Of a stretch of DNA of 51,563 nucleotides, positions 21,415 to 51,563 are shown piece after piece (position 1 is the stretch's first letter; the number at the start of each line of letters is the position of its first letter). The position numbers and the translations under genes were made by a program. The notes beneath the pieces were generated by a model. It worked only from the letters and a program-made list of their open reading frames with translations, did not search any database and was not told the origin of the DNA. This stretch comes from a virus. The DNA is taken from the UHGV virus genome UHGV-0189653. The stretch is one strand, 5' to 3'.

Positions 21415-22650
21415 CTATGATAACCGCGCATTCAACATGGCTATCTGTTCGTCGTTCATGTCATCAATCCACATACCGTAAATTTCATACACCATCTGCG
21501 CAGTTTCATGCCCCATTTGGCTGGCTATAAATGCCGGGTTCGCTCCTGCCGTCAACAGCCAGCAGGCAAAAGTATGCCGCGTATGGTACGGATTACGGCG
21601 GCGAATACCAGCACGTTTTACTGCTGCATTCCACCTTGCCCCCAAACTGCTTACCGAGTAATAAGGTTTTTGTTTTCCGTTACACACCCTGGGCATGAAA
21701 ACAAAATGCAGTTTTTGCTTTTCGGTTCTGCCGTACTCCCGATGATAAAAGGTGATTTCGCTTTTGCGATGATGCCCGGTCAGTTTGTATTGCTCCTTCA
21801 GTGCTTCAAGAGCAGGCTGCAGTAGTGTTACTGTCCGGATCCCGGCATTTGTTTTTGGGGGACCGAACATATCAAGTATCGTCAGGTTTCTTCTGACATT
21901 CACTATTCCCTTTTCGAGATCCACATCCTCCCACGCCAGAGCTGCCAGTTCCCCGTGACGAAGTCCTGAGTAAACTGCAAATTTCCACATGTTCTGGCTC
22001 TGTCCTTTTTCACTTTCCATTAATGCATTGAATTCTGTTTTAGATAACGGATCAGGCTTTATTCTGTTTCGCTGTAATTTTTTTACTCCTTCAAATGGTT
22101 TGGTTGATATAAATCCCGACTGATACGCAAAACGTAACAGCGAACAGAGCAGGGCGATATAGTTATCAACTGTGCGCACGGTTCTTCCTTTTTTGTTGGA
22201 TCTTGGATTATCCAGGTAAAGCGTTTCTCCATGCAGCAGTTCATTCCGGTAGTTTAAGATATCGCTATAACGAATATGTGATATCAGGGTACTTTCACAA
22301 ATTATTATTCTGAGTGTTTTTAATTGTGATTTCGTTTTCTTCATTGTGTTTGTTGTTAACTCTGTCTCTTTAATTTTTGTCCAGATATCACAAAGCTCTC
22401 CGAACGTTTTTATGACTCTCGTTGTCACCATTTTTGCCCCAGTGCTGGACTGGGGAAAACGTCTTAAATACTCAAATTCACCGGAGTTTATTTCATGAAC
22501 TATCAGCGCTCTTAAATTTCCGGCCTTTTTAATATTACTGTTTGTAATCTCCCAGCCTTTTAATGTTTCCCGACATCGTTTTCCTCGAAACATGAACCAG
22601 ATGCGAATGTATCTACCTCTAATCTCGACACCTGTTGGTAATTTAGACAT
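21415..22650 (-). CDS. intR: tyrosine integrase (Rac IntR-like)
   Basis: 411-aa ORF, N-terminus MSKLPTGVEIRGRYIRIWFMFRGKRCRETL, C-terminal catalytic R..HxxR..Y region; adjacent to att repeats. Confidence 0.95.
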   Translation of the reverse strand: MSKLPTGVEIRGRYIRIWFMFRGKRCRETLKGWEITNSNIKKAGNLRALIVHEINSGEFEYLRRFPQSSTGAKMVTTRVIKTFGELCDIWTKIKETELTTNTMKKTKSQLKTLRIIICESTLISHIRYSDILNYRNELLHGETLYLDNPRSNKKGRTVRTVDNYIALLCSLLRFAYQSGFISTKPFEGVKKLQRNRIKPDPLSKTEFNALMESEKGQSQNMWKFAVYSGLRHGELAALAWEDVDLEKGIVNVRRNLTILDMFGPPKTNAGIRTVTLLQPALEALKEQYKLTGHHRKSEITFYHREYGRTEKQKLHFVFMPRVCNGKQKPYYSVSSLGARWNAAVKRAGIRRRNPYHTRHTFACWLLTAGANPAFIASQMGHETAQMVYEIYGMWIDDMNDEQIAMLNARLS

Positions 22651-22651
22651 A

Positions 22652-22867
22652 TCATGAGTCTTTGATAAACTGATTTATCTTTGGATAGTTGTACCAGATA
22701 ATCCCTCGTTTGCTGTCTGGCTTACCTAAAGGAGATACTCGTTTGAAGTGGAAGCCCTCCACCCAACAGTTCTGGCGGTATGCTTCAATTTGTCTGGCCC
22801 CCAGACCAGTGCGAAGCATCAGGCCGTATTCAACCATCCACTCTTCATTAAAGATTACTTGTGCCAT
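22652..22867 (-). CDS. ydaQ: excisionase-like protein (YdaQ/Xis)
   Basis: 71-aa product [16 protein letters not shown]... immediately upstream of int. Confidence 0.75.
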
Positions 22868-22966
22868 CGCATCACCTCTGGCAGGCGCCAATGTTAGACT
22901 GAAATTGACGCCCGATGTTGATTATTAATAATCAGCTATGAAGTTTTAATTTGAATACAATGCAAT

Positions 22967-23155
22967 TCACGAGGACTGAAGTTTCTCGCAATTAAAATTT
23001 ATCAGTTTTACTTTCTGCTCTCTGGAAACGCCTGCTTCTTTTTTACCTGAGAGCATTTTTTCGCATTCTGATTTCGTTAGTTTAGATTTTGAATATCTTG
23101 TCCAGTTAGTAGGAGTGCCACCTTCCTTTTCAATAGTGGCGGTAATTTTATACAT
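22967..23155 (-). CDS. ydaC: YdaC-like protein, function unknown
   Basis: Start MYKITATIEKEGG overlaps the lar stop (translational coupling); Rac order. Confidence 0.55.
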   Translation of the reverse strand: MYKITATIEKEGGTPTNWTRYSKSKLTKSECEKMLSGKKEAGVSREQKVKLINFNCEKLQSS

Positions 23156-23342
23156 GAACACCTCCGTTATTATTTCCAGTGGTTCGTTTATTCCATCTTT
23201 CGAGTGCTTCTTTTTCACTTCCACCATAACCGGTTCGGGATTCGCATCCGTTACACTTCGCTCGGTAATATCCTGAAATGACTTTCACCGTTACTGATGG
23301 ACAACCACAAAATGGACATGGTTTAACATTGTCATATCTCAT
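23148..23342 (-). CDS. ralR: restriction alleviation protein Lar (RalR, type I TA toxin DNase)
   Basis: 64-aa product MRYDNVKPCPFCGCPSVTVKVISGYYRAKCNGCESRTGYGG... with CxxC...CxxC zinc ribbon. Confidence 0.85.
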   Translation of the reverse strand: MRYDNVKPCPFCGCPSVTVKVISGYYRAKCNGCESRTGYGGSEKEALERWNKRTTGNNNGGVHV

Positions 23343-23398
23343 AATTTTTCTCATAAAAAATATTTCAAGTTGGCGGTGCATTACACCGCCAGGCTGAA

Positions 23399-24208
23399 TT
23401 ATTCCTCTGAATTATCGATTACACTGTATTCCCCGGTTAATACAGAGGAATCTGCAGGATCGATTGTCAGTGGTTCCTTTTCATCCATTGATACTGCACG
23501 CTGGATCTCAATTGATACGGGCAGATATTTGAACAGGCGACGAATAGCCGTTTTCTTTGCCATTTCTTCCCAGTGAGTTACCCACGGCCCGTTATTACCA
23601 GCTTTACTCAGGCTGCGCACCAGCTCAATCTGTTTGCGCGTCATAACTTCAAACTGAGTACCTCCGTCTTTCAGTCTTGCGACAGCATAGACGTGGGTAA
23701 CCGGGGCATCTTCGTTTTCTCCCGGGCGGTGTATTAACTTTTCATCAAGGCCAAATTCGAAGCTAAACTCGTCACCTTCACGGACAACACGGGCTGACAG
23801 GCTGGCGATTTGACCAGAACGGCGAGCCAGATCAATCATGCCGCGATAGCCAATGATTAGCTGAACGTTCTTTTTACCGCTCTTTTCGTTTTTATTACCA
23901 AAAGGCAGTAAATATGCATGACCGAGGGCGCTACCTGGCTCAAGTCCGAGCTGTGAACACTGTACGATCGCACTGACAAAACTCATAGTGTCACAGTTTC
24001 CTAACGCCGGAACTTTACGAATTTCTGTGGTGGCGATACGGATCATACGTTCAACCGTCATATGGCGTGGAAGAGCTGCTGCCAGTTGCTCTTTCATTGA
24101 TGGCTGGTTAATAAAACTAATCACGTCGCTATTTTTAACTGCTGCTGGTGCACGGTTTCCCTGAGTTTTTTGCAGATCGGCTTTTGCGATTGGTGGTTGC
24201 TTAGTCAT
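23399..24208 (-). CDS. recT: recombinase RecT (single-strand annealing protein)
   Basis: 269-aa product starting [16 protein letters not shown]; start overlaps recE stop. Confidence 0.95.
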
Positions 24209-26801
24209 TTGCATATTCCTTAGCCCAGCGGGGCAGTGATAATGTCTTAATAGCTGGCCATTCATCGGTATTCAGGCTGTCAGACAGGGTTCGCAGATTG
24301 CGGTGATATTCCTGTTGACCTGCCAGTTTTGCTTCTTCGCCCATCATGAAAATTTCAACCGGATAACGTCCGCATTCAATAGTTGTGCTGGCAACCAGAA
24401 AAACGAAAGTTGGCTGCACTCCAAACTGTGCTTCATAACCGTCACTGTAGAATGCATCCTGAACGTGATAGCGGTAGTCGTAATAAGCGGTTTTGAATCG
24501 TTGAATATCCGCCGTAGTTTTCACGTCCATGATCCAGTGAAATTCAGGGATAATTTTGTCCGGACGGCACCGACACAAAATTCCTGTTTCAGGATCTTCC
24601 CAGTAAATTGATGATTCAGCGTGTCCGGCGCTTTCAACAAGCCATTGCCCCAGCGGCAAAGCCATAACGCTTTGATACATGAGTTCAATTTTCCGGCCTT
24701 CTTCCGCAGTGATAACCGTTTTTCCTGTGCTTGCGCATTCCATCAGAAACGCTTTCTCTTCTTCTTTTCCGGCGTTTGTACGGCGGTTAAATTCAGGTGC
24801 TACGATAAAGCGGTTACTGAATTCTTCCGGTTCAAGTACCCGGCAGTGGAAAGCAGTTCCTAAATCGAGCGTTTTTGTCTTTGTGGTGTCCACGGGGGCA
24901 TTTTTACGCCACAAATATAGTGCCGGAGTATCAGCAATGTCATCGAGCTGAGACTTACTGATACCGGGACCCGCGTGGTAATTCTCATTCGAAATTCCGT
25001 AATAAATACCTGGCTCTATGTCTTCTACGATTACGGGATCTGCGACTTCGCCAGTTTCATCACTGCAATCGCGATGCGGATCGCTGCCAGCATTCTCATT
25101 GTGCGGATGTTCAGCGCCTTCCATTTCCTCCGGATCATTTTCCTTAGCTTCAACCTGACTCTCTTCATCGAATGTTTCCTGGTATGTTGCGTCGCCCATC
25201 ACCGCACCACAGTCAGGGCAGTTATCCCCGCCAGTCTGGCCGCAGGCATTGCAGGCTATTTCCGGTTCCTGTTGCACTACTGGCTCAGGTTGATTCATAT
25301 CCGGGCTGGTTTTTTCCGTTTCTGGCTGGTTCTGGTACACACAATCGCGAGTCTGGATCCCCTTTACCCATTTCGGATCGTTCGGGTCGCTAATTCCGTC
25401 AACAAATTCACCACGTGATGCAGCAAGCAATTTATCGGCATCGACAGGATTTTTTGATGGAATGTTTTTCCGGGCTTCATGGAGTTCTGCCCGCAGTTCC
25501 TGATATTTCGCATCAACAGAATTTACCTGTGACTGAGCATCCAGCGGCTGCGTGTCCTGATGATGTTCAGTTGCGTCCGGTTCCATTGTTTCAGCCTCTC
25601 CCTGTTCAACTGCCGTTGTTCCAGATGGTTGCGGTTTTTCTTCATCATCCTGTTTTCCTTCTTCTGTTACTCGCTGCGGCATCGGGGCAGAGGAGCGACC
25701 GCAGGCAATATCCACGATTTCCGGATCAGGGTTGGCATGATCGGTTTCAGTCAGTACTTTGTTCAGATATTCAGTGACGTGCGCGGGGATGACCTCGATC
25801 CCAATTGGTGCTTCTTTTACGGACGCAACCACGATGGCGCGGGAATAATCCAGCCCGCCAGGCATGGTGATGAATTTGTCGCGGAAAACAGAAAAGGGCG
25901 GTTTATTTTCAGCGATAATTTCCTCAATGCGTTTAGCGTGTGCCGGATGAAGGTTATAGATGTCCAGATCCATTGAACGGGCCAGTACGCCAGTGGCTAC
26001 GTCGCGCGCCAGTGACGTCAGATCGTGTACGAAACCTTCGCCGCGATCGGTGAGGTTTCCGCCGCCAGCATTAGCACCGGAAGCCGTGCGAGTGATGTGT
26101 GAAACACGATTACCCTTCATCCACTCTTTTGTCAGCAGTCCTCGATCGGTGTAGTCAGCGTTCAGGTATGCTTCGAAAAAAGCAGTTATCAGTCCCAGGT
26201 TTGAATTACCAGGATTAGGGAAAACTTTGTCAGTGTCACGAACCAGTTTGTGGAGTTCGCGAATTTCCAGCGGGTCGAGCAGGCTGGTTTTGTGGGAAAC
26301 AGCCAGGGCAGTAACAGCCGGTAGTTCTTCAGCCCGAGCAATGTGTAATGCCTGGAGTCCGTCGCGTGAAACGTGCGTTACCGGTTTTTCGCTGCCGTGT
26401 TGAGCAAGCCAACGAATGGGCAGTTCCTGGCCAGAAATTGGGAGTAGCATATTCTCCTCAATCTCAGTCATGTCTTCGCCGTTGACGTTGGTATTGCCTT
26501 GATAGTGAGCGTTGTCTGGTGCTGCTCCCGGTTTTAGTTCCCATGTCATGGAGTCTTTGCTGAGTTGATAGCGTTCACTCCAGGTAAAATCGATCTCACC
26601 TTCAGCGGGCAGGTCATTAACGACAGGAAAATTCGTGGCAACAGCTTTAAAATAGCTGCTCAGTTTTTTACCTGACTTAACGATCAGGTAGTCCAGAGTG
26701 GCACAGGTCGATTCAAAATCGTTGCTTGCCCACAGGACGACGTCAGGTTCACCGGATGATTTTTTCGCTTTCCGTAACAGGAAGAGTGGTTTTGTGCTCA
26801 T
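24201..26801 (-). CDS. recE: exodeoxyribonuclease VIII RecE
   Basis: 866-aa [35 protein letters not shown]..., C-terminal nuclease domain. Confidence 0.95.
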
Positions 26802-26902
26802 TGTTTTTTAACCTCAACTCAGATTAAAATTCGTTTTGTTCAGTGAATGATCTTGCCGGATACACACTGTTCATAGCCTGCGCCATACGCAGGCTATTTC
26901 TT

Positions 26903-27178
26903 TCAGATTTCACCTTTTAATTTCATTGCAATTAGAGTTGCCAGAAATTCGGCTTTTTTTTCTGCGGGCAGATTCTTTCCGATATGCACCAGGCACATTT
27001 TTTTGACACCTTCATCAAGTGTTTTTACGTTGCCTGATGGACCATCGATATCAACCACAGTGAATGGGGTTTCTTTATTTTCTGTTTTAATTACGTAGCC
27101 AATGCGCTTTCCTTCCAGATTCACCTCGTGAACAATGTCATCGGTAGTTACAACAGTGGCTTCATAATTGGTAATCAT
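26903..27178 (-). CDS. racC: RacC protein
   Basis: 91-aa product MITNYEATVVTTDDIVHEVNLEGKRIGYVIK... Confidence 0.8.
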   Translation of the reverse strand: MITNYEATVVTTDDIVHEVNLEGKRIGYVIKTENKETPFTVVDIDGPSGNVKTLDEGVKKMCLVHIGKNLPAEKKAEFLATLIAMKLKGEI

Positions 27179-27252
27179 GTTTTTCTCCTTAATTAAGGTT
27201 GAGCGAATACCTGCCATTTCTGGCATAAATTCAGTTTCGAATAGTCAATTAA

Positions 27253-27423
27253 TTAAAGTTCATGTGCCATCTGGTCTTTTTCGGCACAAGATTCACTGCA
27301 ATATTTTCTCGGTTCGTCTTTTGATAAAATCCCGTGCATGAAGTGAAGCATTCTTTCAATAGCTTTGCTTTCTTCAACGTCTTTTTTGCAAAGGTGGTAA
27401 GCACATTTTATTTTCTTAGTCAT
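27253..27423 (-). CDS. ydaE: YdaE, small Cys-rich metal-binding protein
   Basis: 56-aa ORF found by manual translation ([56 protein letters not shown]); below the ORF-track size cut-off. Confidence 0.65.
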   Translation of the reverse strand: MTKKIKCAYHLCKKDVEESKAIERMLHFMHGILSKDEPRKYCSESCAEKDQMAHEL

Positions 27424-27644
27424 CACCATGACTCCGCCTTTACAGGTAAACCATCACGACCGAGGAAGACTTTAATCATGCGGTCAGTAATGCATGTTTT
27501 TGTGGTCAGGTTACGAATATATAGTTTTCGCTTTTTAATATTGTTTGCCGAGGCAATATATGTCCGGCCTTCATGAAGAACATAATCGCCAGGAGTCACA
27601 CACTGACGTGGTATTTCATCAGTTCCGAAGTGATGTGCAATCAT
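27423..27644 (-). CDS. kilR: KilR, FtsZ-targeting cell division inhibitor
   Basis: 73-aa product [38 protein letters not shown]...; stop overlaps ydaE start. Confidence 0.85.
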
Positions 27645-28085
27645 AATTATCTCCATTTTTACAAATGAACTTTGTTGATGCGGTGCCTGGTGCCTCCAGG
27701 TGACTGCAACCAGTTAACAATTACAGTCGGCTTTCCCACCCAAACCAATAAGGACTAACATGACTTTTAACTGTGCCACGTGCGCTTAGCCGCATTCACC
27801 GCATCACAAAATTCACTTTAAAAAGGGCGGACATCAGCCGAACTTCAAGAAAAAAAATGATGCCGCCAGGACTACACACAGCAATGTCGTTATTTACAAC
27901 CGGAGGCGCACTCCCACCATTTAAATTTAACAGACAAGACCGACTCTTTATGGATATCGGAAATGCGCCTTCGTGTTGTGCCCGGTTTTATTTCACCACC
28001 TCCGGGCTTCGGTGGTCTCGGCTATACCCCTACAGCGAGAGCTTGTGTTAACATTTCAATACCCTTACAGTTGAGAGTTATTGAT

Positions 28086-28574
28086 ATGTTGGATGTATTT
28101 ACTCCATTGTTGAAACTTTTTGCTAACGAGCCACTCGAAAGACTTATGTATACGATTATCATTTTTGGTCTCACTCTCTGGCTGATACCGAAAGAGTTTA
28201 CTGTCGCATTCAATGCTTATACTGAAATACCTTGGCTCTTTCAGATTATCGTTTTTGCCTTTTCTTTCGTGGTCGCCATTTCCTTCTCAAGATTGCGAGC
28301 ACATATTCAAAAGCATTATTCATTACTACCAGAGCAACGAGTATTGCTTCGTTTATCTGAGAAAGAAATCGCTGTATTTAAAGATTTCCTTAAAACAGGA
28401 AATCTTATTATCACTTCTCCTTGCCGTAACCCGGTTATGAAAAAATTAGAACGGAAGGGCATCATTCAACATCAGAGTGATAGCGCAAACTGTTCTTATT
28501 ATCTCGTCACCGAAAAATACTCCCATTTTATGAAGTTATTCTGGAACAGCAGGAGTAGACGTTTTAATCGTTAG
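28086..28574 (+). CDS. sieB: superinfection exclusion protein SieB
   Basis: 162-aa membrane protein starting MLDVFTPLLKLFANEPLE with two hydrophobic segments; plus strand opposite the early-left operon. Confidence 0.8.
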   Translation: MLDVFTPLLKLFANEPLERLMYTIIIFGLTLWLIPKEFTVAFNAYTEIPWLFQIIVFAFSFVVAISFSRLRAHIQKHYSLLPEQRVLLRLSEKEIAVFKDFLKTGNLIITSPCRNPVMKKLERKGIIQHQSDSANCSYYLVTEKYSHFMKLFWNSRSRRFNR

Positions 28575-28726
28575 CTTACTGTGTGCTTCTCCAACCATCG
28601 GCGCGCACCAGTTTCGGTTTTAAATGTTTTGCTTTTGGTATACGTCATGGCAGTGAACGTTCCATCCTGGTTGGGGAACACGCCGCACACCAGGGATTCG
28701 TTGTTGCCGAGGTTGATTTTTTGCAT
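28571..28726 (-). CDS. ydaF: YdaF small protein
   Basis: 51-aa ORF by manual translation (MQKINLGNNESLVCGVFPNQDGTFTAMTYTKSKTFKTETGARRWLEKHTVS); convergent 4-nt overlap with sieB. Confidence 0.6.
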   Translation of the reverse strand: MQKINLGNNESLVCGVFPNQDGTFTAMTYTKSKTFKTETGARRWLEKHTVS

Positions 28727-28736
28727 TTTGCGAATC

Positions 28737-28871
28737 TCACATCTTGTTGCTACGTATAGCGACTTCTGCCTGCCAGAGATCCCAGTCGTTGCTGCGTAAA
28801 GCCTGCACAGCCTGGTTGTAAGTGATACCGCAACAATCCATCAAATACTGAACTACTTCGTAATGCACCAT
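28737..28871 (-). CDS. ydaG: YdaG small protein
   Basis: 44-aa ORF by manual translation (MVHYEVVQYLMDCCGITYNQAVQALRSNDWDLWQAEVAIRSNKM); first gene downstream of predicted pL. Confidence 0.6.
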   Translation of the reverse strand: MVHYEVVQYLMDCCGITYNQAVQALRSNDWDLWQAEVAIRSNKM

Positions 28872-29040
28872 CTTATCTCTCCCCTTAACGCCGGGTGGCG
28901 GAACTAACTGCTGCACTGCAAAATTTGAATCCCGCCGTCATGTTCATACGCCTCGGGCTGGCTACTTAACCCCTTACCACTGCCTGGTAACTCGAAGTAT
29001 TGCCCGGCGTTCTGTGGGGCGGGGTGGGTGGTATGCTGGA

Positions 29041-29105
29041 ACTATAGGTAATGCCTAATTGATTGTCAATAGGCTATGCCTAATGTTTTGAGCGTAACCT
29101 AATAG
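29041..29105 (-). promoter_or_regulatory. OL/pL-like leftward early promoter with operator repeats
   Basis: Minus-strand -35 TTGACA (29069-29064), 17-nt spacer, -10 TATAGT (29046-29041); GCCTAAT half-sites at 29053-29059 and 29078-29084, CCTAAT at 29098-29103; 33-bp block 29053-29085 is a near-perfect inverted copy of 29707-29740. Confidence 0.55.
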
Positions 29106-29136
29106 GTGATGGCGACAGCAGAAAGTGATGGGGGGG

Positions 29137-29655
29137 TTAAATAACGGAATCCAGGAGTTTTCCGTCAGACCATATAAGTTTAAGTTCCAGTTTTGTGATG
29201 TTCTGGCTTTTCCGTTCAGATTCTAGAGCTTTCAGATACTTACCCACTTTCATTTCCATCGCTGCTATGTAGGCGCGAACATCGTGGTCAACCCAATCTG
29301 GTTCTGTAGCATTTCCAGATAACAGGAAAGCTACAATCGCTCTTATTTCATCAGAGGCTGCTTGATAAAGGTTGTTTATATCTAAAAGTTCACTTTTTGT
29401 ATCTGAATTGGTGGGGGTTGGTATGGGGTATTCGTTAAGCCCCCAATGCTCTGGACCAACAACATCAGAAAAGAAACGCCATAATTCTGGAAGTTTATCT
29501 TTACTTATAGAGCCTTTCTTAATCCAGTCATAAATTGATGGTGGTTGGACTTTGAAGTGGCGTGCGACCTCCGCCTTTGATTTGACGGATCCCGATGCGA
29601 TTTTTTTGTTAATGGCCTGCTCTATCGCTCGGCCTAAGTCTTTACCACTAAGCAT
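29137..29655 (-). CDS. racR: prophage repressor RacR
   Basis: 172-aa ORF MLSGKDLGRAIEQAINKKIASGSVKSKAEVARHFKVQPPSIYDWIKKG (N-terminal HTH); divergent from ydaS; RBS AGGAGA. Confidence 0.85.
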   Translation of the reverse strand: MLSGKDLGRAIEQAINKKIASGSVKSKAEVARHFKVQPPSIYDWIKKGSISKDKLPELWRFFSDVVGPEHWGLNEYPIPTPTNSDTKSELLDINNLYQAASDEIRAIVAFLLSGNATEPDWVDHDVRAYIAAMEMKVGKYLKALESERKSQNITKLELKLIWSDGKLLDSVI

Positions 29656-29679
29656 TGCTTAATATTCTCCTATGCGCAT

Positions 29680-29752
29680 TACATTAGGCAATCCCTACCC
29701 TTACCGCATTAGGCATAGCCTATTGACAATTGCATTAGGCGTCGCCTAATAT
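29680..29752 (+). promoter_or_regulatory. OR/pR-like rightward promoter with operator repeats
   Basis: CATTAGGC at 29683-29690, 29707-29714, 29733-29740; palindrome ATTAGGCGTCGCCTAAT at 29734-29750; -35 TTGACA at 29723-29728 with TAATAT about 18 nt downstream. Confidence 0.55.
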
Positions 29753-29778
29753 TTCTGTGTGTTTTTGGAGTTCATTCG

Positions 29779-30075
29779 ATGAAAAAAGAGAACTATTCAT
29801 TCAAGCAAGCTTGTGCTGTTGTCGGTGGGCAATCAGCAATGGCTAGGCTTTTAGGTGTATCACCTCCAAGCGTAAATCAATGGATCAAAGGGGTACGTCA
29901 ATTGCCTGCCGAGAGATGTCCAGCAATTGAACGTGCAACAAGAGGTGAGGTTCTGTGCGAAGAACTTCGTCCTGATATTGACTGGTCATATTTACGACGT
30001 TCGGCATGTTGTTCGCAGAATATGTCAGTGAAGCAACTAAATGACAGTAACAAATCCTCATTTGATCATACCTGA
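29779..30075 (+). CDS. ydaS: Cro-like HTH regulator YdaS
   Basis: 98-aa ORF with HTH (QSAMARLLGVSPPSVNQWIKG), divergent from racR. Confidence 0.85.
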   Translation: MKKENYSFKQACAVVGGQSAMARLLGVSPPSVNQWIKGVRQLPAERCPAIERATRGEVLCEELRPDIDWSYLRRSACCSQNMSVKQLNDSNKSSFDHT

Positions 30076-30097
30076 AACATCAAGAGGCAAATGATTC

Positions 30098-30520: not shown

Positions 30521-30532
30521 GCAAAAGTTTCC

Positions 30533-31390: not shown

Positions 31391-31396
31391 CTGACC

Positions 31397-43237: not shown

Positions 43238-44162
43238 TGATTTTTGCGCCTTTATTCTGACTCACGGGCGACCGGACAAAGTTCTGACTTACCGGACGTT
43301 GCGTCGTGCTGGCTATACCGGGAAAATTTTTATCGTTGTTGATGATGAAGATAAGACACGGCATCAGTACATGGCTGAATTTGGTGAACAGGTGCTGGTG
43401 TTTTCCAAAGCCGATATCGCCAGTCGTTTTGACGAAGCCGATAATTTCTGTGACCGCCGCTCAATTTTTTACGCCCGTAATGCCTGTTTCGACCTGGCAA
43501 AACTGGTCGGGTGTAAATACTTCATTCAGCTCGATGATGATTATCACGAGTTCCAGTTTCGGGTGGATCGCAACTATGACCAGGCCTATTTTCCGATAAG
43601 GAAACTGGATGCGATCCTTTCTGAAATGCTGGCGTACTACGAATCAATACCTGCTCTTTCCATCGCTATGTCGCAGGGCGGGGATTTTCTTGGTGACAAT
43701 GGCGGCCATGCTTCGTGGGTGAAACGCAAGGCAATGAACAGCTTTATCTGTTCGGTTGATCGACCGTTCTCATTCATGGGGCGCATTAACGAGGATGTGA
43801 ATACGTACACGAATCTCGGTCGCTGTGGTGAATTGTTTATGACGATCGGTGCTGTCCAGTTAGGGCAGAAACAGACGCAGAAAAACAGCGGCGGAATGAC
43901 CGAGCTGTATCTGGATTCCGGAACCTACGTTAAAAGTTTTTACTCCGTCATGTATGCGCCGTCGTGCGTAAAAATCTCACTGATGGGTGCCAGCCATAAA
44001 CGCATTCACCATCAGGTCACCTGGAACAACGCTGCAGTAAAAATCCTTCACGAAAAATACAGGAAGAAGACACCCTGCATATCAATGGGGGTGACAAATG
44101 ATTCCGTATTCGAAAGTCGAGTCTCTGGCAGCGTGCCGGATGACTGCACAACAAATCGCTGA
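43230..44162 (+). CDS. putative GT-A-fold glycosyltransferase-like protein (DxD motif)
   Basis: 310-aa product from ATG 43230 (RBS GGAGGAGGA; overlaps ParB-like stop); beta-alpha-beta signature FILTHGRP...IFIVVDDEDK and downstream FIQLDDDY; soluble; inference from motifs only. Confidence 0.4.
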   Translation: MRDDFCAFILTHGRPDKVLTYRTLRRAGYTGKIFIVVDDEDKTRHQYMAEFGEQVLVFSKADIASRFDEADNFCDRRSIFYARNACFDLAKLVGCKYFIQLDDDYHEFQFRVDRNYDQAYFPIRKLDAILSEMLAYYESIPALSIAMSQGGDFLGDNGGHASWVKRKAMNSFICSVDRPFSFMGRINEDVNTYTNLGRCGELFMTIGAVQLGQKQTQKNSGGMTELYLDSGTYVKSFYSVMYAPSCVKISLMGASHKRIHHQVTWNNAAVKILHEKYRKKTPCISMGVTNDSVFESRVSGSVPDDCTTNR

Positions 44163-44349
44163 CGTTCTGGATGTTGATCTGAACCGACTGAAAGAAAATC
44201 GGGAAGCAATGACAGATTTTTATGCGGCCATCCGTAAGGGCAGAGCGAAAGGTGAAGCCGAGTTACGAGCGGCATTGTTTAAGCTTGCCAGAAAAGGGGA
44301 TGCCTTTGCTCTGCGCGAACTACTCAGGGTGGATAAAAATCAGGACTAA
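44098..44349 (+). CDS. small putative DNA-binding protein upstream of terminase
   Basis: 83-aa ORF with RBS GGGG, HTH-like segment (MTAQQIADVLDVDLNRLKENRE), overlaps end of upstream gene. Confidence 0.4.
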   Translation: MIPYSKVESLAACRMTAQQIADVLDVDLNRLKENREAMTDFYAAIRKGRAKGEAELRAALFKLARKGDAFALRELLRVDKNQD

Positions 44350-44352
44350 CTG

Positions 44353-45447
44353 ATGAGCAGACCGGACTGGGGGGCGTTGCAGCAGGAGTATATTGCTGAA
44401 TACACCCGCTCCGGTATATCTCCGGTGGCATGGTGTGAAGCAAGGGGACTGAATTACGCAACAGCCCGTCGTTACATCAAAAAAACTCCGAAAAATGCGC
44501 AGACAGAAATGTGCAAAACTGCGCAAAAAAGTGCGCAGAAAAAATCTGCGCAGACTGCACAAAAGCGGAACGAAAAATCTCAGGAAAAAAAGCCAGTATT
44601 CGATGCGGGCCTGAATGAGGGCGACGCGGAGGAATTTTCGTTCTGTCCCGATGAATTCGGCATTTCTGACCAGCAGGCTAAGTTTGCGATGCTTGTTGCT
44701 CAGGGTAAAAAGCCGACAGAGGCGTACCGACTAGCCGGTTATGAGGGGCAAGGTGCGACAGCTAATAGCAACGCCAGTCGTATGCTTAGAAATGCCAGGG
44801 TTTTTCGCGCTATCAGCTACTTCCGCAATCAGTACCAGAAACGCTATACCGCAGACCTGGATTTACTAGTGAGTCAGTTGATGGCCATTGTCCTGGCCGA
44901 CCCCAATCAGCTTGCACAATTTCGCCGTGTTAACTGCCGTTATTGCTGGGGCGAGAATCATCTCTACCAGTGGCGCGATATAGCAGAATTCGACAAGGCA
45001 GCGGCGCAGGCTTCCAGAGATGGCAAACCCGAACCGGAATATGGAGGCCTCGGCTTTGTTGATAACGCCATACCCAATCCGGACTGCCCGAAGTGCTGCG
45101 GTGAGGGAACGGGACAGCTTTATATGGCTGATACCACTCTGCTTGATGGGGATGCGCGGCAATTATATGCAGGGGCAAAATTCGGAAAATTCGGCGTTGA
45201 GATCCTGCTGGAGGATAAGGCTGCCGCCCGGCGTGAATTGTTGCGTTTGCTTTCTGCTGGCGGGGCTTTATGTGCAGATAAGCGGCTACAGGAACTGGAA
45301 ATTGAACGGCGCAGAATGGAAAACCAGAAGCTGCGCAAAGAGATCGAAACGGTGGAAGATAATGAACATCCCCAGCCTGTGGCGATCAATATTAATGTGG
45401 TTGATGCCAGAGTAAGGAGTGATGAAGATGATCTCTCCGACGCTTAA
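44353..45447 (+). CDS. terS: terminase small subunit (atypically long, with CxxC...CxxC region)
   Basis: 364-aa ORF directly upstream of and overlapping the large terminase; N-terminal HTH (ISPVAWCEARGLNYATARRYIKK), central Terminase_2-like segment, Cys pairs. Confidence 0.6.
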   Translation: MSRPDWGALQQEYIAEYTRSGISPVAWCEARGLNYATARRYIKKTPKNAQTEMCKTAQKSAQKKSAQTAQKRNEKSQEKKPVFDAGLNEGDAEEFSFCPDEFGISDQQAKFAMLVAQGKKPTEAYRLAGYEGQGATANSNASRMLRNARVFRAISYFRNQYQKRYTADLDLLVSQLMAIVLADPNQLAQFRRVNCRYCWGENHLYQWRDIAEFDKAAAQASRDGKPEPEYGGLGFVDNAIPNPDCPKCCGEGTGQLYMADTTLLDGDARQLYAGAKFGKFGVEILLEDKAAARRELLRLLSAGGALCADKRLQELEIERRRMENQKLRKEIETVEDNEHPQPVAININVVDARVRSDEDDLSDA

Positions 45448-46729
45448 TGTGCCTCAGGCGCGATTTCTTTCAATGCCCCATAAATTTAAAGCCTATATTG
45501 CTGGTTTTGGCTCGGGCAAAACATGGGTTGGGTGTGGCGGCATATGCAAGGGGATTTGGGAGCATCCAGGTATAAATCAGGGATATTTTGCGCCAACGTA
45601 TCCCCAAATTCGCGATATTTTTTACCCTACAGTGGAAGAAGTTGCTGCTGACTGGGGATTGAACGTAAAAATTAATGAGGGAAATAAAGAGGTTCACTTT
45701 TATTACGGACGCCAGTATCGGGGAACCACTATCTGCAGATCGATGGAGAAGCCACAAACGATCGTCGGTTTCAAAATTGGTAATGCGTTGGTGGATGAAC
45801 TGGACATTTTGCCGAAGGAAAAAGCCAGAACGGCGTGGCGCAAGATAATTGCACGTATGCGTTATAAGATTGATGGACTTCGCAACGGTATTGACGTTAC
45901 AACCACGCCGGAAGGATTCAAATTTGTCTACGAGCAGTTTGTTAAAGCCGTGCGTGAAAAAACAGAGCTGGCCTCACTGTATGGTCTGGTGCAGGCATCT
46001 ACTTTCGATAATGAAAAGAACCTGCCAGCAGATTACATTCCTTCGCTTCTTGAATCATACCCTCCAGAGCTGATTAAAGCCTATCTTCGAGGACAGTTTA
46101 CTAACCTGACAAGTGGTACTGTTTACCATCAGTTTGACCGGAAACTGAATAATTGCGAAGAAGTGGAGCAGCCAGGGGAGCCGATTTATATTGGGATGGA
46201 TTTTAACGTTGGAAAGATGGCGGGAATCGTCCATGTGCTGCGTTTGGGGCTTCCATGTGCGGTAACTGAAATCATCAATGCCTACGATACGCCGGATATG
46301 ATCCGCATCATTAAAGAACGCTTCTGGCTGTATGATGGGAATGATTACCGGAAAGTGAGGGAAATTTATATTTATCCAGATGCTTCCGGGGATTCCAGAA
46401 AATCAAGTAACGCAAGTACGACGGATATAGCCCAGCTTAAGCAGGCTGGTTTTAACGTTGTGGTGAACAGCTCGAACCCGCCAGTAAAAGATCGCGTTAA
46501 CTCAATGAATGCAATGTTCTGCAATGCCAATGGTGAGCGTCGCTATAAAGTTAATGTGAAGCGTTGCCCGTTATATGCCGAATCTCTGGAGCAACAGGTC
46601 TGGGATGAGAAGGGGGAGCCTGATAAAAAATCTGGCAATGATCACCCGAATGATGCCGGAGGTTATTTCATCGTTAAGCAATTCCCTATTGTCAAACCGA
46701 CCGGAAGAGTCACATCACTTCGGATTTAA
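45419..46729 (+). CDS. terL: terminase large subunit
   Basis: 436-aa ORF with Walker A (AGFGSGKT), nuclease-domain acidic residues; followed by portal. Confidence 0.9.
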   Translation: MMKMISPTLNVPQARFLSMPHKFKAYIAGFGSGKTWVGCGGICKGIWEHPGINQGYFAPTYPQIRDIFYPTVEEVAADWGLNVKINEGNKEVHFYYGRQYRGTTICRSMEKPQTIVGFKIGNALVDELDILPKEKARTAWRKIIARMRYKIDGLRNGIDVTTTPEGFKFVYEQFVKAVREKTELASLYGLVQASTFDNEKNLPADYIPSLLESYPPELIKAYLRGQFTNLTSGTVYHQFDRKLNNCEEVEQPGEPIYIGMDFNVGKMAGIVHVLRLGLPCAVTEIINAYDTPDMIRIIKERFWLYDGNDYRKVREIYIYPDASGDSRKSSNASTTDIAQLKQAGFNVVVNSSNPPVKDRVNSMNAMFCNANGERRYKVNVKRCPLYAESLEQQVWDEKGEPDKKSGNDHPNDAGGYFIVKQFPIVKPTGRVTSLRI

Positions 46730-46731
46730 TT

Positions 46732-48138
46732 ATGGCTGATATATCAACACCCAACCTCGACTATAACGATATGCTGGAGGCGTGGGATATTAACGACGCA
46801 CTGATGGGCGGTACGCTTGAAATGCGCAGGCAGGGGGAAAATTATCTCCCAAAATGGCCTAACGAAGATGAAGACGCTTATAAAAAACGCCTGTCTGTGG
46901 CTACGCTACTTCCTGTGTATGAAGAAAGCATCAAGCAAAATATTGGGCGCATATTTGCAGAGCCGACAGTATTGAGTGAGGAAACGCCGGCAAAAATCAG
47001 GGAATATGCAGAAAATATCGACATGGAGGGGAGCCGACTGGATGTGTGGGCGCAGCAATTTTTCAGCCTCGCATTTCAGTATGGTGTGGCACATGCGCTG
47101 GTGGACTATCCACGAACGGATATGAAAGAGATTCGGACAAAAGCCGATGAAAACGCGGCCGGTGGTCGTCCGTACGTTACGATGCTGAATCCACGCCAGG
47201 TTATTGGATGGAAATCGAAAGTTGAAAAAGGGAAAGTTGTTCTCACTGATTTGCGTATAAAAGAGGTCATCATTATTGATGGTGATGATTTCGGGCAGAA
47301 GAAGGTGGAGCAGATCCGCCATATTATGCCCCGTCGAGTTGAAATTTATCGACGTAGCGAAGGCACTAATGGCGAATCTGTCTGGACGCTTCATGAGTCA
47401 TGGAATACCAGCCGTGATGATATTCCTCTGGTAACACTGTACACGAAGAAAACAGGATTTATGCGTGGTACACCGCCATTGCTTAATCTTGGCTTGCTGA
47501 ATATCAAGCACTGGCAAAGCCAGAGCGAGCAGGACAATATTCTTCATGTTGCCCGCGTTCCATTGCTGGTGGCCTACGGGCTGGACAGGAATGAAGAACT
47601 GACGGTTGGTGCATCCACCGCTACGATTTTTGAGGACAGAACAAAAAATGGCCTCGAATATGTTGAACATAGTGGCGCAGCGATAGAATCTGGCGAAACA
47701 TCACTTGAGAAGCTGGAAAATCAGATGCGTCATGCCGGCGCTAAACTTCTGCGTGCTGAAAATACATCCACCAAATCTGTTGATCAGACTAATGAAGAGC
47801 GAATGCAGGAAAACTCGCCGCTTTATACAATGGCGAACTCCCTCGAAGATGCCCTCGATAATATTCTCCAGATAATGGCGGAATGGATCGGAGAGAGTTG
47901 CGGTGGCAATGTGGATGTGCGCACTGAACTGGATGTATCTGCCCAGGTGTTTGACTCATCCTCCGCGCTGGCTGTTCAGTCATTGCGTCAGGGCGGTGAT
48001 ATACGTCAGATTGATGCGGTTCGGGTGTTGCAGGCGTTGAAATTTATCGATCAGGATTCCCGTCCAGAGGAAGTGATCGATGAATTAAAAAATCAGAGTG
48101 TAATGCTGATGGAAATCAATGATGCAAACCGTGAATGA
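46732..48138 (+). CDS. portal protein
   Basis: 468-aa ORF immediately after the large terminase and before the head morphogenesis gene. Confidence 0.8.
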   Translation: MADISTPNLDYNDMLEAWDINDALMGGTLEMRRQGENYLPKWPNEDEDAYKKRLSVATLLPVYEESIKQNIGRIFAEPTVLSEETPAKIREYAENIDMEGSRLDVWAQQFFSLAFQYGVAHALVDYPRTDMKEIRTKADENAAGGRPYVTMLNPRQVIGWKSKVEKGKVVLTDLRIKEVIIIDGDDFGQKKVEQIRHIMPRRVEIYRRSEGTNGESVWTLHESWNTSRDDIPLVTLYTKKTGFMRGTPPLLNLGLLNIKHWQSQSEQDNILHVARVPLLVAYGLDRNEELTVGASTATIFEDRTKNGLEYVEHSGAAIESGETSLEKLENQMRHAGAKLLRAENTSTKSVDQTNEERMQENSPLYTMANSLEDALDNILQIMAEWIGESCGGNVDVRTELDVSAQVFDSSSALAVQSLRQGGDIRQIDAVRVLQALKFIDQDSRPEEVIDELKNQSVMLMEINDANRE

Positions 48139-49234
48139 ACGGCTGCGTGATGAATCAATTGCTCATGCAGTCTGGATATCCCGCTATAGCACTGGCGTGG
48201 CTGCCAGAATGGTGAAAATACTGAATGACAGCGATGCGGAACTTACTGCTCGCCTGCTGATAGCACTGGACAGCCTCGATCCAGGTAGTTTTACCGTTAA
48301 GCGCCTGGAGTCACTTCTGGCGAGCGTCAGAGAGGTTAACCGCACTGCTATTAACAGCATGTTTACCAGTCTCTCCGGAGAGCTGAACGAGCTGGCAATT
48401 TATGAGGCTGGTTATCAGTTAAGTCTGTTTGATTCTATGCTACCTGATTTTGTTGCTGATGTTCACCCTCTGGTTGGTATCTCTCCTGATGCACTTTATG
48501 CCGCTGCAATGGCGCGACCATTCCAGGGACGACTGCTCAGTGAGTGGGCCTCAGATCTTGAGGCGGATCGGCTCAGACGCATAACAAATACAGTGCGTCA
48601 GGGTTTTTTGCTGGGGGATACCAATGAGCAGATCGCAAGAAAAATTCGGGGACATGTCAGTAAGGGATTTCAGGATGGTGCATTGCAGATGAGCCGGGCT
48701 AATGCGGCCAGCATTGCAAAAACAGCGGTTGGACATCTTGCTGCTACTGCCCGTGAGAGTTTTGCCAGCGCGAATAATGATTTGATTAAGGGTAAGCAAT
48801 GGTTATCAACGCTTGATAATCGTACTACGCCACAATGTCGAATCAGGGATCGCCTCAAATATACGCTGAATAATAAACCTGTAGGTCACAGCGTGCCTTA
48901 TTTGCAGGGGCCGGGAAAAATTCATTTCTGCTGCCGCTCAACGGAAACGTTCATTCTGAAATCAGCGAAGGAACTGGGTATTGATGTTCGCGATATTTCC
49001 CCGGCTGAGCGGGCCAGCATGGATGGCGTGGTGGCCGGAGATACAACCTACAGGGAATGGTTTTTGCGTCAGCCTTACACCAGACAAAAACAGATTGTGG
49101 GGGAAACCCGAGCAAAGCTGATTCGGGATGGTGGTATGTCGCCAGATGAATTTTACACCGATAAAGGCGAATGGCTGACGCTGAAGCAGCTCCGTGAGCG
49201 TGATGCACAGGTATTCAGAAAAGCAGGGATTTAA
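48119..49234 (+). CDS. head morphogenesis protein (Mu F / SPP1 gp7-like minor head protein)
   Basis: 371-aa ORF following portal; central region GKQWLSTLDNRTTPQCRIRDR typical of this class. Confidence 0.75.
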   Translation: MMQTVNERLRDESIAHAVWISRYSTGVAARMVKILNDSDAELTARLLIALDSLDPGSFTVKRLESLLASVREVNRTAINSMFTSLSGELNELAIYEAGYQLSLFDSMLPDFVADVHPLVGISPDALYAAAMARPFQGRLLSEWASDLEADRLRRITNTVRQGFLLGDTNEQIARKIRGHVSKGFQDGALQMSRANAASIAKTAVGHLAATARESFASANNDLIKGKQWLSTLDNRTTPQCRIRDRLKYTLNNKPVGHSVPYLQGPGKIHFCCRSTETFILKSAKELGIDVRDISPAERASMDGVVAGDTTYREWFLRQPYTRQKQIVGETRAKLIRDGGMSPDEFYTDKGEWLTLKQLRERDAQVFRKAGI

Positions 49235-49254
49235 ATAAATCATTTATTACAACA

Positions 49255-49278
49255 GGCTACCTTCGGGTGGCCTTTTTT
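49255..49278 (+). terminator. UUCG-tetraloop hairpin plus T6 between head morphogenesis and scaffold genes
   Basis: ggctacc-ttcg-ggtggcc (7 bp incl. one G-U) followed by TTTTTT. Confidence 0.5.
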
Positions 49279-49338
49279 ATTGCTGCGATCCGGATGGTGA
49301 GCAGCGTAACTGTCGGAAGACTTAAACCAGGTACTAAT

Positions 49339-50103
49339 ATGAAACTGAAAACGGTCGAGATTAACGGAAAACAATACGCAGAAATTGATACTGCTGGCCT
49401 GCCAGTTTATGTGCACGACGATGGTAAAGAAATTGGCTTCGATGCACCGCTGGCGACAAAAAAAATTACAGAGCTTAATGGCGAGGCAAAAAATCATCGC
49501 CTGGCTAAAGAAGCTGCAGAGGAAAAACTGGCTAAGTTTGCCGCTATCGAAGACCCGAAGAAGGCGATCGAGGCACTGGAAATGCTGTCAAAAATCGACC
49601 AGAAAAAGCTGCTCGATGCGGGACAGGTTGACCAGGTTAAGGCAGAAATTACGAAAAATTTTCAGCAGCAATTAGATGAAGAAAAGCAACGCTCTCAGAT
49701 GCTGGAGAAGCAGCTTTACGATTCTATGATTGGCGGTAGTTTTGCGGGTTCAAAATATATTGCCGATAAAATTGCGATCCCGGCAGATTTATTACAAGCC
49801 CGCTTCGGGCAGGCATTCAAAGTGGAAGAAGGGAGGATCGTTGCTTATGACGCTTCCGGCAACAAAATTTATTCCCGCGCGAAGCCTGGCGAACTGGCGC
49901 AGTTTGATGAGGCGCTGGAGTTCCTTGTCGAAAATTACCCTCAGAAAGACTACATCCTGAAAGCCAGTGGCAACAATGGCGGCGGCTCCCGTCCGACACA
50001 GCATGATATTGGTCAGAAAACGATGAAACGCTCTGCTTTTGATGCACTGGATGTTGCAGGTAAGCAAAACGCATTGAAAGACGGTATCACAATCGTTGAT
50101 TAA
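49339..50103 (+). CDS. putative scaffolding protein
   Basis: 254-aa acidic, coiled-coil-rich product from ATG 49339 (MKLKTVEINGKQ), immediately upstream of capsid gene. Confidence 0.55.
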   Translation: MKLKTVEINGKQYAEIDTAGLPVYVHDDGKEIGFDAPLATKKITELNGEAKNHRLAKEAAEEKLAKFAAIEDPKKAIEALEMLSKIDQKKLLDAGQVDQVKAEITKNFQQQLDEEKQRSQMLEKQLYDSMIGGSFAGSKYIADKIAIPADLLQARFGQAFKVEEGRIVAYDASGNKIYSRAKPGELAQFDEALEFLVENYPQKDYILKASGNNGGGSRPTQHDIGQKTMKRSAFDALDVAGKQNALKDGITIVD

Positions 50104-50201
50104 CACATTTGTCAGCTTCCGGATGGGAGCTGGTGTCAGGGCTGGATAGCTCATTACTCCATCTATTCACAATTACGCAAATTTTTAAGGAATATTTAAT
50201 T

Positions 50202-51341
50202 ATGGCTGGAAATACCCTGACCGGGTTGATCCCGACTATTTATACCGCCCTGGATGTTGTATCCCGTGAGCAGGTAGGTTTTATCCCTGCGGTAGCAAAA
50301 AACGCAAAAGCTGACGCCGCAGCAAAAGATCAGACGGTAACCGCGCCAGTTGCGCCTGAGGCGAAAACCGAAGATATCGTACCGGGGCCGTCAGCTCCGA
50401 ATACCGGTGATCAAAATATTGGCACTGTTGATGTAAAAATTACTAAATCCAAAATGGCACCGGTTAAATGGAATGGTGAAGAACAACTGGCTCTTGGCCC
50501 TTCAGGGACTTACAACACCATTCTGGCTGATCAGTTCAAGCAGGCTTTTCGCGCCCTTGCAAACGAGGTTGAGGCTGATCTTGGTGCGTTGTATTTCGGT
50601 GCTTCCCGCGCCGTGGGAACCGCAGGGACAACGCCGTTTGGTGTTAAAGATGATCTTTCTGATGCTGCTCTGGCTCGTCAGGTTCTGGAGGATAACGGCG
50701 CACCGACAACCGATCTGCAGATGGTGCTTGGCTCCACTGCCATTGCTAATTTGCGCGGAAAACAGTCTGTATTGTTTAAAGTGAATGAATCCGGCACTGA
50801 ACAGCTACTGCGTGAGGGCGTGTTGGGGCGTCTGGAGGGATTCAATATTCACAGTTCGGCAGGTGTGAAACGAGCGCCAAAGGTTGCTGCAACTGGTTAT
50901 CTCGTGAATGGAGAGAAAAAAGAAGGCGATGTTCTTATTTCCATTGATACTGGTTCGGGGAGTATTTCTGCAGGTCAGATTGTTACGTTCGCTGGTGATC
51001 CGAATCAGTATGTTGTGGCAGCAGCGACCAGCAATCTGATTACTCTTGCAGCGCCCGGACTGCGTCAGGATCTGGCCGATGATACTGCCATCACAGTTGT
51101 TGGGGCCTTTACTGCAAATATGGCGTTTGATCGCAACGCGTTTCTGCTGGCATCCCGTACTCCGGCAATGCCGGAAGGTGGCGATAATGCTGATGATGTA
51201 ATGAATGTTACGGACCCGATTTCAGGGATTACGTTCCAGATTGCACTGTATCGTCAGTATCGCCAGGTGCGCTATGAAGTTGGACTGGCATGGGGTGTTT
51301 CATCAGTGAAGCCGGCACATGGTTGTCTGATTCTTGGTTAA
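50202..51341 (+). CDS. major capsid protein
   Basis: 379-aa product from ATG 50202 (RBS AAGGA); follows scaffold; followed by strong terminator. Confidence 0.7.
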   Translation: MAGNTLTGLIPTIYTALDVVSREQVGFIPAVAKNAKADAAAKDQTVTAPVAPEAKTEDIVPGPSAPNTGDQNIGTVDVKITKSKMAPVKWNGEEQLALGPSGTYNTILADQFKQAFRALANEVEADLGALYFGASRAVGTAGTTPFGVKDDLSDAALARQVLEDNGAPTTDLQMVLGSTAIANLRGKQSVLFKVNESGTEQLLREGVLGRLEGFNIHSSAGVKRAPKVAATGYLVNGEKKEGDVLISIDTGSGSISAGQIVTFAGDPNQYVVAAATSNLITLAAPGLRQDLADDTAITVVGAFTANMAFDRNAFLLASRTPAMPEGGDNADDVMNVTDPISGITFQIALYRQYRQVRYEVGLAWGVSSVKPAHGCLILG

Positions 51342-51351
51342 ACATTCAAAC

Positions 51352-51371
51352 GGGGCTTCGGCCCCATTTTT
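51352..51371 (+). terminator. intrinsic terminator after major capsid gene
   Basis: ggggc-ttcg-gcccc hairpin followed by ATTTTT. Confidence 0.6.
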
Positions 51372-51383
51372 AATGGGGGGCAT

Positions 51384-51560
51384 ATGGCCGGATTAACTAA
51401 AGAGCAAAGAGCACAGCGTGAAGCCGCACAAAAAACGCAAATTGAGTTAGTGGTTATGGTGACCGATTATCAGATGTTTCCCGGCGCACCAACTATCGCT
51501 AATGTTCATCCTGATGAAGTTGACAACTGGAAGGCTATGGGCTGGAAAACTCAGGAGTAA
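51384..51560 (+). CDS. small head-associated protein (58 aa), hypothetical
   Basis: ORF by manual translation (MAGLTKEQRAQREAAQKTQIELVVMVTDYQMFPGAPTIANVHPDEVDNWKAMGWKTQE); below ORF-track cut-off. Confidence 0.35.
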   Translation: MAGLTKEQRAQREAAQKTQIELVVMVTDYQMFPGAPTIANVHPDEVDNWKAMGWKTQE

Positions 51561-51563
51561 CAC

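Follow-up and report, generated by a model that had tools for sequence, protein, structure and literature searches.

UHGV virus genome UHGV-0189653 is a 51,563-nucleotide stretch of DNA, referred to at its full length as the window. We conclude, with a probability of about 0.9, that the whole window is one complete genome, in circularly permuted attP form, of a temperate lambdoid siphovirus of Escherichia coli that belongs to the Rac family, and the full-length counterpart of Rac, the defective prophage of E. coli K-12. The lambdoid module order (int/xis, recombination, immunity, replication, nin/Q, lysis, packaging, head, tail, and tail fibre) is present on the circular map. A first-pass annotation had equated the element with positions 21415-51563, an interval that starts just inside attP and stops shortly past the capsid gene; the element in fact covers the whole window.

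Two joins establish this extent. The last 1,500 nucleotides of the window followed by its first 1,500 nucleotides align without gaps, at 99.7 to 99.8% identity, to two independent full-length prophages integrated at ttcA. The 66-nucleotide end-start join, which runs from capsid to adaptor, was matched exactly in 47 IMG/VR viral contigs. The second join is internal. A 26-bp core (TTGTTCAGGTTGTATTGTTCTTTCTT; 21314-21339) that is identical in K-12 attL and attR is flanked, within positions 21290-21380, by the K-12 attR arm on its left and by the K-12 attL arm on its right, and the BLAST alignments of the two window arms to K-12 overlap at 21314-21356. This arrangement is the structure expected of attP after excision. 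Next to the core, on the minus strand, lies a phage-borne replacement for the 5' end of ttcA (21340-21363; start codon at 21363-21361; first codons MQENQQIT...), to which the ttcA start of strain N31 maps. The attP 60-mer was matched exactly in six IMG/VR contigs, and the junction expected from excision and circularization is present in these as well as in the window itself. One contig (IMGVR_UViG_3300039370_000009; 50.5 kb) holds exact copies of the two joins (attP and end-start) and is 100% identical to window positions 15696-28598 (12.9 kb compared). The open reading frame (ORF) map of the window contained no host genes besides the ttcA start, and a tRNA scan of the window found no tRNA gene. 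Because the end-start join is gap-free and attP lies inside the window, the element spans all of it and not just 21415-51563.

The closest relatives are integrated prophages. Megablast searches of the window against 5,426 complete E. coli genomes placed at least 80% of positions 21000-45999 (int to terminase) at one place in 198 genomes, the closest being 99.8% identical. At least 80% of positions 44000-51563 (mainly the packaging and head module) occurred at one place in at least 715 genomes. Positions 21314-45999 are 99.8% identical to ttcA-adjacent prophages in strains such as N31, in which the NCBI annotation runs from intR through ydaV and on to holin, lysozyme, Rz, trkG, ynaK, terminase, portal, and capsid. 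Positions 1-21356 match the right arm of the same prophage type, from the connector to sitABCD, ending at attR next to uspF. The N31 prophage (NZ_CM165896.1) is 99.86% identical to the window over 21314-51563 and 99.3% identical over 1-6436, with identical gene order and gene lengths. Other full-length ttcA prophages include that of MS 69-1 and the PHASTER-derived vB_EcoS-666R9 and 673R7 (ON470614 and ON470616). Unlike the window, the full-length ttcA prophages (N31, MS 69-1, and others) are integrated attL/attR copies, and none has the racR deletion described below. None is identical to the window in the tail fibre and sit region, where the best match is 95 to 98%, and no fully identical match to the window was found among phage records or the 5,426 E. 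coli genomes.

The comparison with K-12 used the cryptic prophage Rac of strain MG1655 (NC_000913.3, 1411899-1434958). Five blocks occur in the same order and orientation in both sequences: window positions 21314-32615, from attL to the middle of ydaW (99.69% over 11,303 bp); 40269-42699, with the 3' part of Rz, Rz1, trkG, and the 5' part of ynaK (99.88%, 2,431 bp); 2697-4454, from ydaY to ynaA (99.03%, 1,760 bp); 12888-13101, the 5' fragment of lomR (97.7%, 214 bp); and 13096-14191, the 3' part of lomR with the 5' part of stfR (98.5%, 1,096 bp). Together they make up 16,804 bp with 73 mismatches (99.57% identity), and the shared proteins are 98 to 100% identical. A sixth match, at 21161-21356, corresponds to the K-12 right end and attR (97.4%). 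The first block holds int-xis-rcbA/ralR-recT-recE-racC-ydaE-kilR-sieB-ydaF-ydaG-racR-ydaS-ydaT-ydaU-ydaV (21415-32143) in K-12 order, and Rz/Rz1, trkG, and ynaK follow in Rac order at 40249-43237, both as the first-pass annotation had read them. The high identity from int to ydaV agrees with the counterpart relationship that it proposed.

These blocks carry the features that define the Rac family: an IntR-type tyrosine integrase with a K-12-identical core at the ttcA 5' end; a collinear recE-recT-ralR/RalA-kilR-sieB and racR/ydaS/ydaT region; and a trkG moron downstream of Rz/Rz1. Thus, the window and K-12 Rac are alike in their integrase, attachment core, ttcA target, recET, ralR/RalA, kilR, and sieB, and also in their racR-ydaS-ydaT immunity region, ydaUV, Rz1, trkG, and lom. 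They differ in that the window is in attP form and has a frameshift at the 3' end of racR. In addition, the distal 4.9 kb of K-12 Rac (the C-terminal part of stfR, tfaR, pinR, ynaE, and ynaM) is replaced in the window by another fibre and sitABCD; its sole counterpart in the window is 127 bp at 85% identity.

A total of 27.6 kb of the window has no K-12 counterpart. Whole-region alignment mapped the segments lost from K-12 to the base pair, and the window can serve as the reference for K-12 losses that had been anticipated: deletion 1 corresponds to window positions 32616-40268 (7.65 kb), deletion 2 to 42700-51563 plus 1-2696 (11.56 kb), and deletion 3 to 4455-12887 (8.43 kb). Each junction in K-12 shows a 2-bp microhomology (TA, AA, and CA), and each interrupts genes that are whole in the window, namely, DUF1627/Rz, ParB-like/chaperone G, and tape measure/Lom. 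The IS5 that splits lomR in K-12 is absent from the window, where its target site is intact. These data indicate that K-12 Rac is a very close relative of the window phage after three deletions by illegitimate recombination and an IS5 insertion, with a different distal fibre and cargo end.

Four annotated K-12 genes (ydaW, ynaK, ydaY, and ynaA; positions 14753-19483 of the K-12 locus, L002) are remnants of deletion fusions. ydaW consists of the first ~150 amino acids of a 253-amino-acid DUF1627 protein joined to out-of-frame Rz, and rzpR is a 5'-truncated Rz. ynaK comprises the first 85 amino acids of a 263-amino-acid ParB_N protein, ydaY is a tail chaperone G that has acquired a new start codon, and ynaA is the N-terminal ~310 amino acids of a 1,077-amino-acid tape measure. 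The three K-12 junctions were found in 335, 348, and 345 of the 5,426 genomes; these near-equal counts, examined for signs of a stepwise decay, gave no clear order of deletion. In E. coli CP61_Sichuan (NZ_CP053730.1, 2842669-2842940), both halves of the ynaK-ydaY junction match, with ~190 bp between them; this may be a deletion state of Rac that arose independently or that is an intermediate.

The integrity of the genes was assessed against relatives. Of the 42 coding sequences annotated in N31 across 21415-51560, all but racR are open in the window without a change in length, and the tail genes match those of two other prophages in length. The essential genes for morphogenesis, lysis, replication, and integration are all present without stops or frameshifts; the two exceptions in the window, a frameshift at the 3' end of racR and a vestigial Tfa, are nonstructural. 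The description of the element as an intact counterpart of K-12 Rac can therefore be kept for gene content and open reading frames, which is as far as the sequence would carry the word "intact," and is to be dropped in the sense of a literal ancestor.

Several observations weigh against our interpretation. The right arm at 14192-21160 has no K-12 match, which makes the window a very close sister of the progenitor of K-12 Rac and not the progenitor itself. The racR deletion was present in 0 of the 582 E. coli genomes that contain the segment and in 0 IMG/VR contigs. In the phage collection, the head module was tied to no cultured-phage record among the ten records matched. The viability of the phage is a prediction from its sequence. 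Finally, the same sequence would result if one unit length were cut out of a tandem double lysogen.

The alternative that best survives is that the gene set looks complete and the element is nonviable or deregulated, through the racR frameshift or an unseen missense or regulatory defect, which would make it a cryptic or runaway element. We regard this as unlikely, though it deserves more weight than the other alternatives. The racR change is a unique 1-nucleotide deletion that replaces the last 3 residues and adds 14, the head module is common to no cultured phage in the collection, and KingRac, the one tested Rac-like phage, induces weakly (PMC6731689). However, the deletion lies in a homopolymer and spares 155 of the 158 residues, and some 60 structural, lysis, replication, and integration genes are open at the lengths found in hundreds of prophages. 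The head module is 100% identical across many genomes, which suggests recent spread by infection, and the sequence is in attP form. Infectious Rac-like particles have been demonstrated experimentally for the relative KingRac (PMC6731689).

It is very improbable that the window is a unit-length slice of tandem Rac-like prophages, or a misassembled circle or chimera from a metagenome, rather than a free phage. An internal attP-like junction does arise in tandem lysogens, and the best E. coli matches differ between the halves (99.8% for 21314-51563 versus 95 to 98% for 6437-21356). Unequal identities are nevertheless normal mosaicism for lambdoid phages; moreover, the window end abuts its start to the base, as within single prophages, the window is exactly one genome length without host DNA, and both joins are exact in a single contig (IMGVR_UViG_3300039370_000009). 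The same difference in best matches, between 1-21356 and 21314 onward, had suggested two different prophages in tandem. This possibility was rejected because the left part corresponds to a right arm from this very type of phage, the end-start join is exact, and attP lies at the junction. Hardly any credence is due to the idea that K-12 Rac merely shares modules through lambdoid recombination and did not arise by deletion from such an architecture, which would invalidate the window as a map of losses: lambdoid phages are mosaic and the K-12 distal 4.9 kb lacks a window counterpart beyond the 127 bp, but the five collinear blocks of equal order and orientation (97.7 to 99.9% identical), with truncated genes and 2-bp microhomologies at the junctions, are a signature of deletion rather than of module exchange.

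Full-size relatives of Rac have been described before. KingRac, from mouse-gut E. coli, is a Rac-like phage that forms particles, lysogenizes K-12 in the mouse gut, takes the place of the defective Rac, and probably transduces flanking DNA (PMC6731689, PMC12251178). By description, KingRac (46.8 kb) and the window (51.6 kb) are both ttcA lambdoid elements with full morphogenesis genes. Sp10 and CP-933R of E. coli O157:H7 (PMC4632033, PMC6379469) and the LT-II-encoding Rac-SA53 (KU052037) are all full-size Rac-like prophages at ttcA; Jobling argues that such prophages provide the context for ydaS/ydaT (PMC5917428). Sp10/CP-933R, Rac-SA53, and the window have a common left arm of int, recET, immunity, and replication genes (PMC4632033, PMC5917428). 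Rac-SA53 covers only 38% of window positions 21000-45999 (91.6% identity), and its head module is different. For Sp10/CP-933R, only the leftmost 8 kb was reported to be 99% identical to K-12 Rac (PMC4632033). The window, with 16.8 kb of shared blocks, appears by sequence to be closer to K-12 Rac than either Sp10/CP-933R or Rac-SA53. The idea that a full-size Rac-like prophage gives the context of ydaS/ydaT is already published (PMC5917428, PMC6731689, PMC4632033). The existence and activity of such prophages were likewise known, and the present finding is correct and not new.

The age of K-12 Rac was considered from the divergence of phage and host sequences. K-12 and N31 differ by 1.85% in the host flank zntB-dbpA-ttcA (L002 1-3899 versus positions 8102-12000 of the N31 locus, L001), whereas the shared Rac blocks (16.8 kb) differ by 0.43% between the window and K-12. 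The phage lineage thus looks much younger than the host split. This single 3.9-kb flank is only suggestive of a recent horizontal spread of the phage lineage and of a relatively recent decay in the K-12 line. The common description of Rac as a fossil, with an acquisition dated to over 4.5 million years ago (quoted in PMC4632033), seems to fit awkwardly with the low phage divergence. We put it at somewhat under even odds that K-12 Rac is a recent triple-deletion derivative of a still-circulating, probably infectious phage lineage and not an ancient fossil. In that case, putting back three defined segments could resurrect Rac, and ydaW, ynaK, ydaY, and ynaA of K-12 would be artefacts of deletion fusion.

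The value of the window lies mainly in the base-pair decay map that it offers for the most-studied cryptic prophage, with three deletions, one IS5, and a swapped right end. It shows ralR, kilR, racR/ydaS/ydaT, trkG, and ynaK within a complete phage genome, allows ydaW, ynaK, ydaY, and ynaA to be annotated as remnants of DUF1627, a ParB-like protein, chaperone G, and tape measure, and would be useful for rebuilding an active Rac. Near-identical copies are annotated in hundreds of public E. coli genomes, and no open question is changed.

The left arm begins with the integrase gene intR (21415-22650, minus strand; 409 of 411 amino acids identical to K-12) and the excisionase gene xisR (22652-22867, minus strand; 71 of 71 identical). 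Recombination by IntR/XisR would take place between the 26-bp attP core and the 5' end of ttcA in the host, the phage supplying the replacement ttcA start; integration and excision by these proteins at this site have been shown for K-12 Rac (PMC4632033). The early-left operon of rcbA, ralR, recT, recE, racC, ydaE, and kilR (22967-27644, minus strand) would express RecET, RalR/RalA, and KilR. The small RNA RalA (22971-23149, plus strand; Rfam RF02694, 225 bits) is antisense to rcbA/ralR, and an Rfam scan of the window returned RalA and sok only.

The operon is followed by sieB (28086-28574, plus strand), ydaF (28571-28726, minus strand), and ydaG (28737-28871, minus strand). The repressor gene racR (29137-29655, minus strand) is divergent from ydaS (29779-30075, plus strand; Cro-like) and ydaT (30098-30520, plus strand; cII-like), both of which are 100% identical to K-12 and would be repressed by RacR. 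The assignment of RacR as cI and of YdaS/YdaT as Cro/cII is that of Casjens, as relayed in PMC5917428. In the window, RacR has 172 amino acids instead of the usual 158, as a result of the deletion in a run of five A's near 29191. A shared natural allele was rejected as the source of this change, given its absence from the 582 genomes and from viral contigs, which leaves a sequencing error in the homopolymer or a repressor variant private to this excised-form genome.

Genome replication would depend on YdaU (30533-31390, plus strand) and the DnaC-like YdaV (31397-32143, plus strand). As proposed in the first-pass annotation, nin-like genes, a Q-like gene, holin, and endolysin were found by family assignment between ydaV and Rz, and alignment confirmed that the modules in this interval, like those for packaging and head, are absent from K-12 Rac. 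The interval opens with the full-length gene for the DUF1627 protein (32166-32927, 253 amino acids), a DUF977/Ren-like gene (32943-33365), and a hypothetical gene (33527-34030, 167 amino acids). A KilA-N protein of the BstA family (34151-34924, minus strand; PHROG, 2.7e-89; PADLOC BstA, 3.2e-21) is encoded inside the segment deleted from K-12; judged by its membership in this abortive-infection family, it is likely a prophage defence gene. A hok/sok-type toxin-antitoxin locus (35279-35572; Rfam sok, 101.5 bits; 41-amino-acid Hok/Gef ORF at 35447-35572) and, on the strand opposite hok, a DUF1971/TehB-like ORF (35655-35996, minus strand) are both absent from K-12 Rac.

On the plus strand, NinB-like DUF1367 (36864-37463) and YbcO nuclease (37463-37753) genes precede a gene for a Q-like antiterminator (37750-38292; DUF1133, 357 bits; phrog_753 "anti-termination protein Q-like," 3.9e-79), which scored 27.4 bits against Phage_antitermQ, just above the cutoff of 26. 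A predicted Q-type antiterminator upstream of the lysis cassette is characteristic of lambdoid phages, and it would switch on a late operon of lysis genes, trkG, the ParB-like/TAGT pair, and structural genes. An orphan ORF of 189 amino acids (38514-39083, plus strand; phrog_11870) without a Pfam match lies between Q and the holin gene, the slot that houses Stx and other toxin morons in related lambdoid phages. The lysis genes, all on the plus strand, encode a lambda-type holin S (39431-39772), a lambda-type endolysin (39776-40252), and Rz (40249-40713) with embedded Rz1 (40469-40654); K-12 deletion 1 ends within Rz, at 40268, and the part retained in K-12 is 40269-42699. The trkG potassium transporter moron follows (40851-42308, plus strand; 485 of 485 amino acids identical to K-12).

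The gene for the 263-amino-acid ParB_N-domain protein (42446-43237, plus strand), in which K-12 deletion 2 starts at 42700, is followed upstream of terS by a gene for a TAGT-family glycosyltransferase (43230-44162, plus strand; PF20691, "TET-associated"). No TET/JBP or hydroxymethylcytosine-synthesis gene was seen in the window. The pair may be a DNA modification module in a phage that makes no hydroxymethylcytosine; a literature search on a link between ParB and TAGT gave nothing pertinent to lambdoid phages.

The first-pass annotation had placed packaging, head, and tail genes after ynaK. This was right for packaging and head, and the tail genes are at 1-17108, with none inside 21415-51563. 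The packaging and head genes are all on the plus strand and absent from K-12: a small ORF (44140-44349), terS (44353-45447; Terminase_2 small subunit, PF03592), T4-type terL (45428-46729; PF03237/PF17289), a DUF4055 portal gene (46732-48138), and genes for an SPP1 gp7-like, MuF-like head protein (48122-49234; PF04233), a scaffold (49339-50103), and a P22-coat-like major capsid protein (50202-51341), with a 58-amino-acid ORF (51384-51560) at the end. The presence together of T4-type terL, Terminase_2 terS, portal, and MuF/SPP1 gp7-like genes suggests packaging by headful into a scaffold-assembled capsid. Many E. coli genomes carry the module at 99.8 to 100% identity. Within the phage collection, the ten records with high identity to it were nine PHASTER-predicted prophages and Salmonella phage SPF_0923; the paper behind the nine prophage records never identifies them as Rac-like.

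Connector genes, on the plus strand and within K-12 deletion 2, were assigned by PHROG to adaptor (1-396), head closure (396-779), neck/tail completion (780-1160), and tail terminator (1157-1549) functions. The tail tube gene (1576-2538, plus strand; 320 amino acids; PF18906 Phage_tube_2, phrog_290) is likewise absent from K-12. Tail assembly chaperone G (2689-3048, plus strand; phrog_313), of which 116 of 119 amino acids are identical to K-12 YdaY, is encoded with a canonical slippery heptamer (A_AAA_AAG) that sits in the correct phase at position 3036, and the -1 frame stays open as far as 3356; by sequence, a programmed frameshift device of the G/GT type is preserved. The tape measure gene (3520-6753, plus strand; 1,077 amino acids), in which K-12 deletion 3 starts at 4455, has the same length in N31 and in the collinear relative prophage L003. 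The PGAP annotation of L003 provided the names of the lambda-type tail tip genes M (6746-7084), L (7084-7782), K/C40 peptidase (7788-8531), I (8528-9076), and J (9137-12619), all on the plus strand and absent from K-12 through deletion 3.

A Lom-family outer membrane protein gene (12686-13285, plus strand) is uninterrupted, whereas in K-12 deletion 3 has removed the 5' end of lomR and IS5 has split the gene. A single open ORF (13344-17108, plus strand; 1,254 amino acids) encodes the side tail fibre, with an N-terminal prophage tail fibre domain (PF08400) and a C-terminal PF13884 Peptidase_S74 intramolecular chaperone domain; only its first ~850 nucleotides match K-12 stfR. In L003, unlike the window, the same fibre is broken into a pseudogene and a separate ORF. 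The vestigial Tfa is a C-terminal remnant 3' of the fibre gene (~17140-17290), and its state need not matter because the fibre carries its own chaperone domain. The tail would be of the lambda type, its assembly chaperone relying on a G/GT frameshift and its side fibre bearing a self-cleaving chaperone domain. At the right end, next to attP, lie the sitDCBA genes for an iron/manganese ABC transporter (17505-20954, minus strand), which are absent from K-12 Rac. The sitABCD cargo also occurs in phage 21, ev017, and many lambda-like records, and, together with trkG, it would be a lysogenic-conversion cargo.

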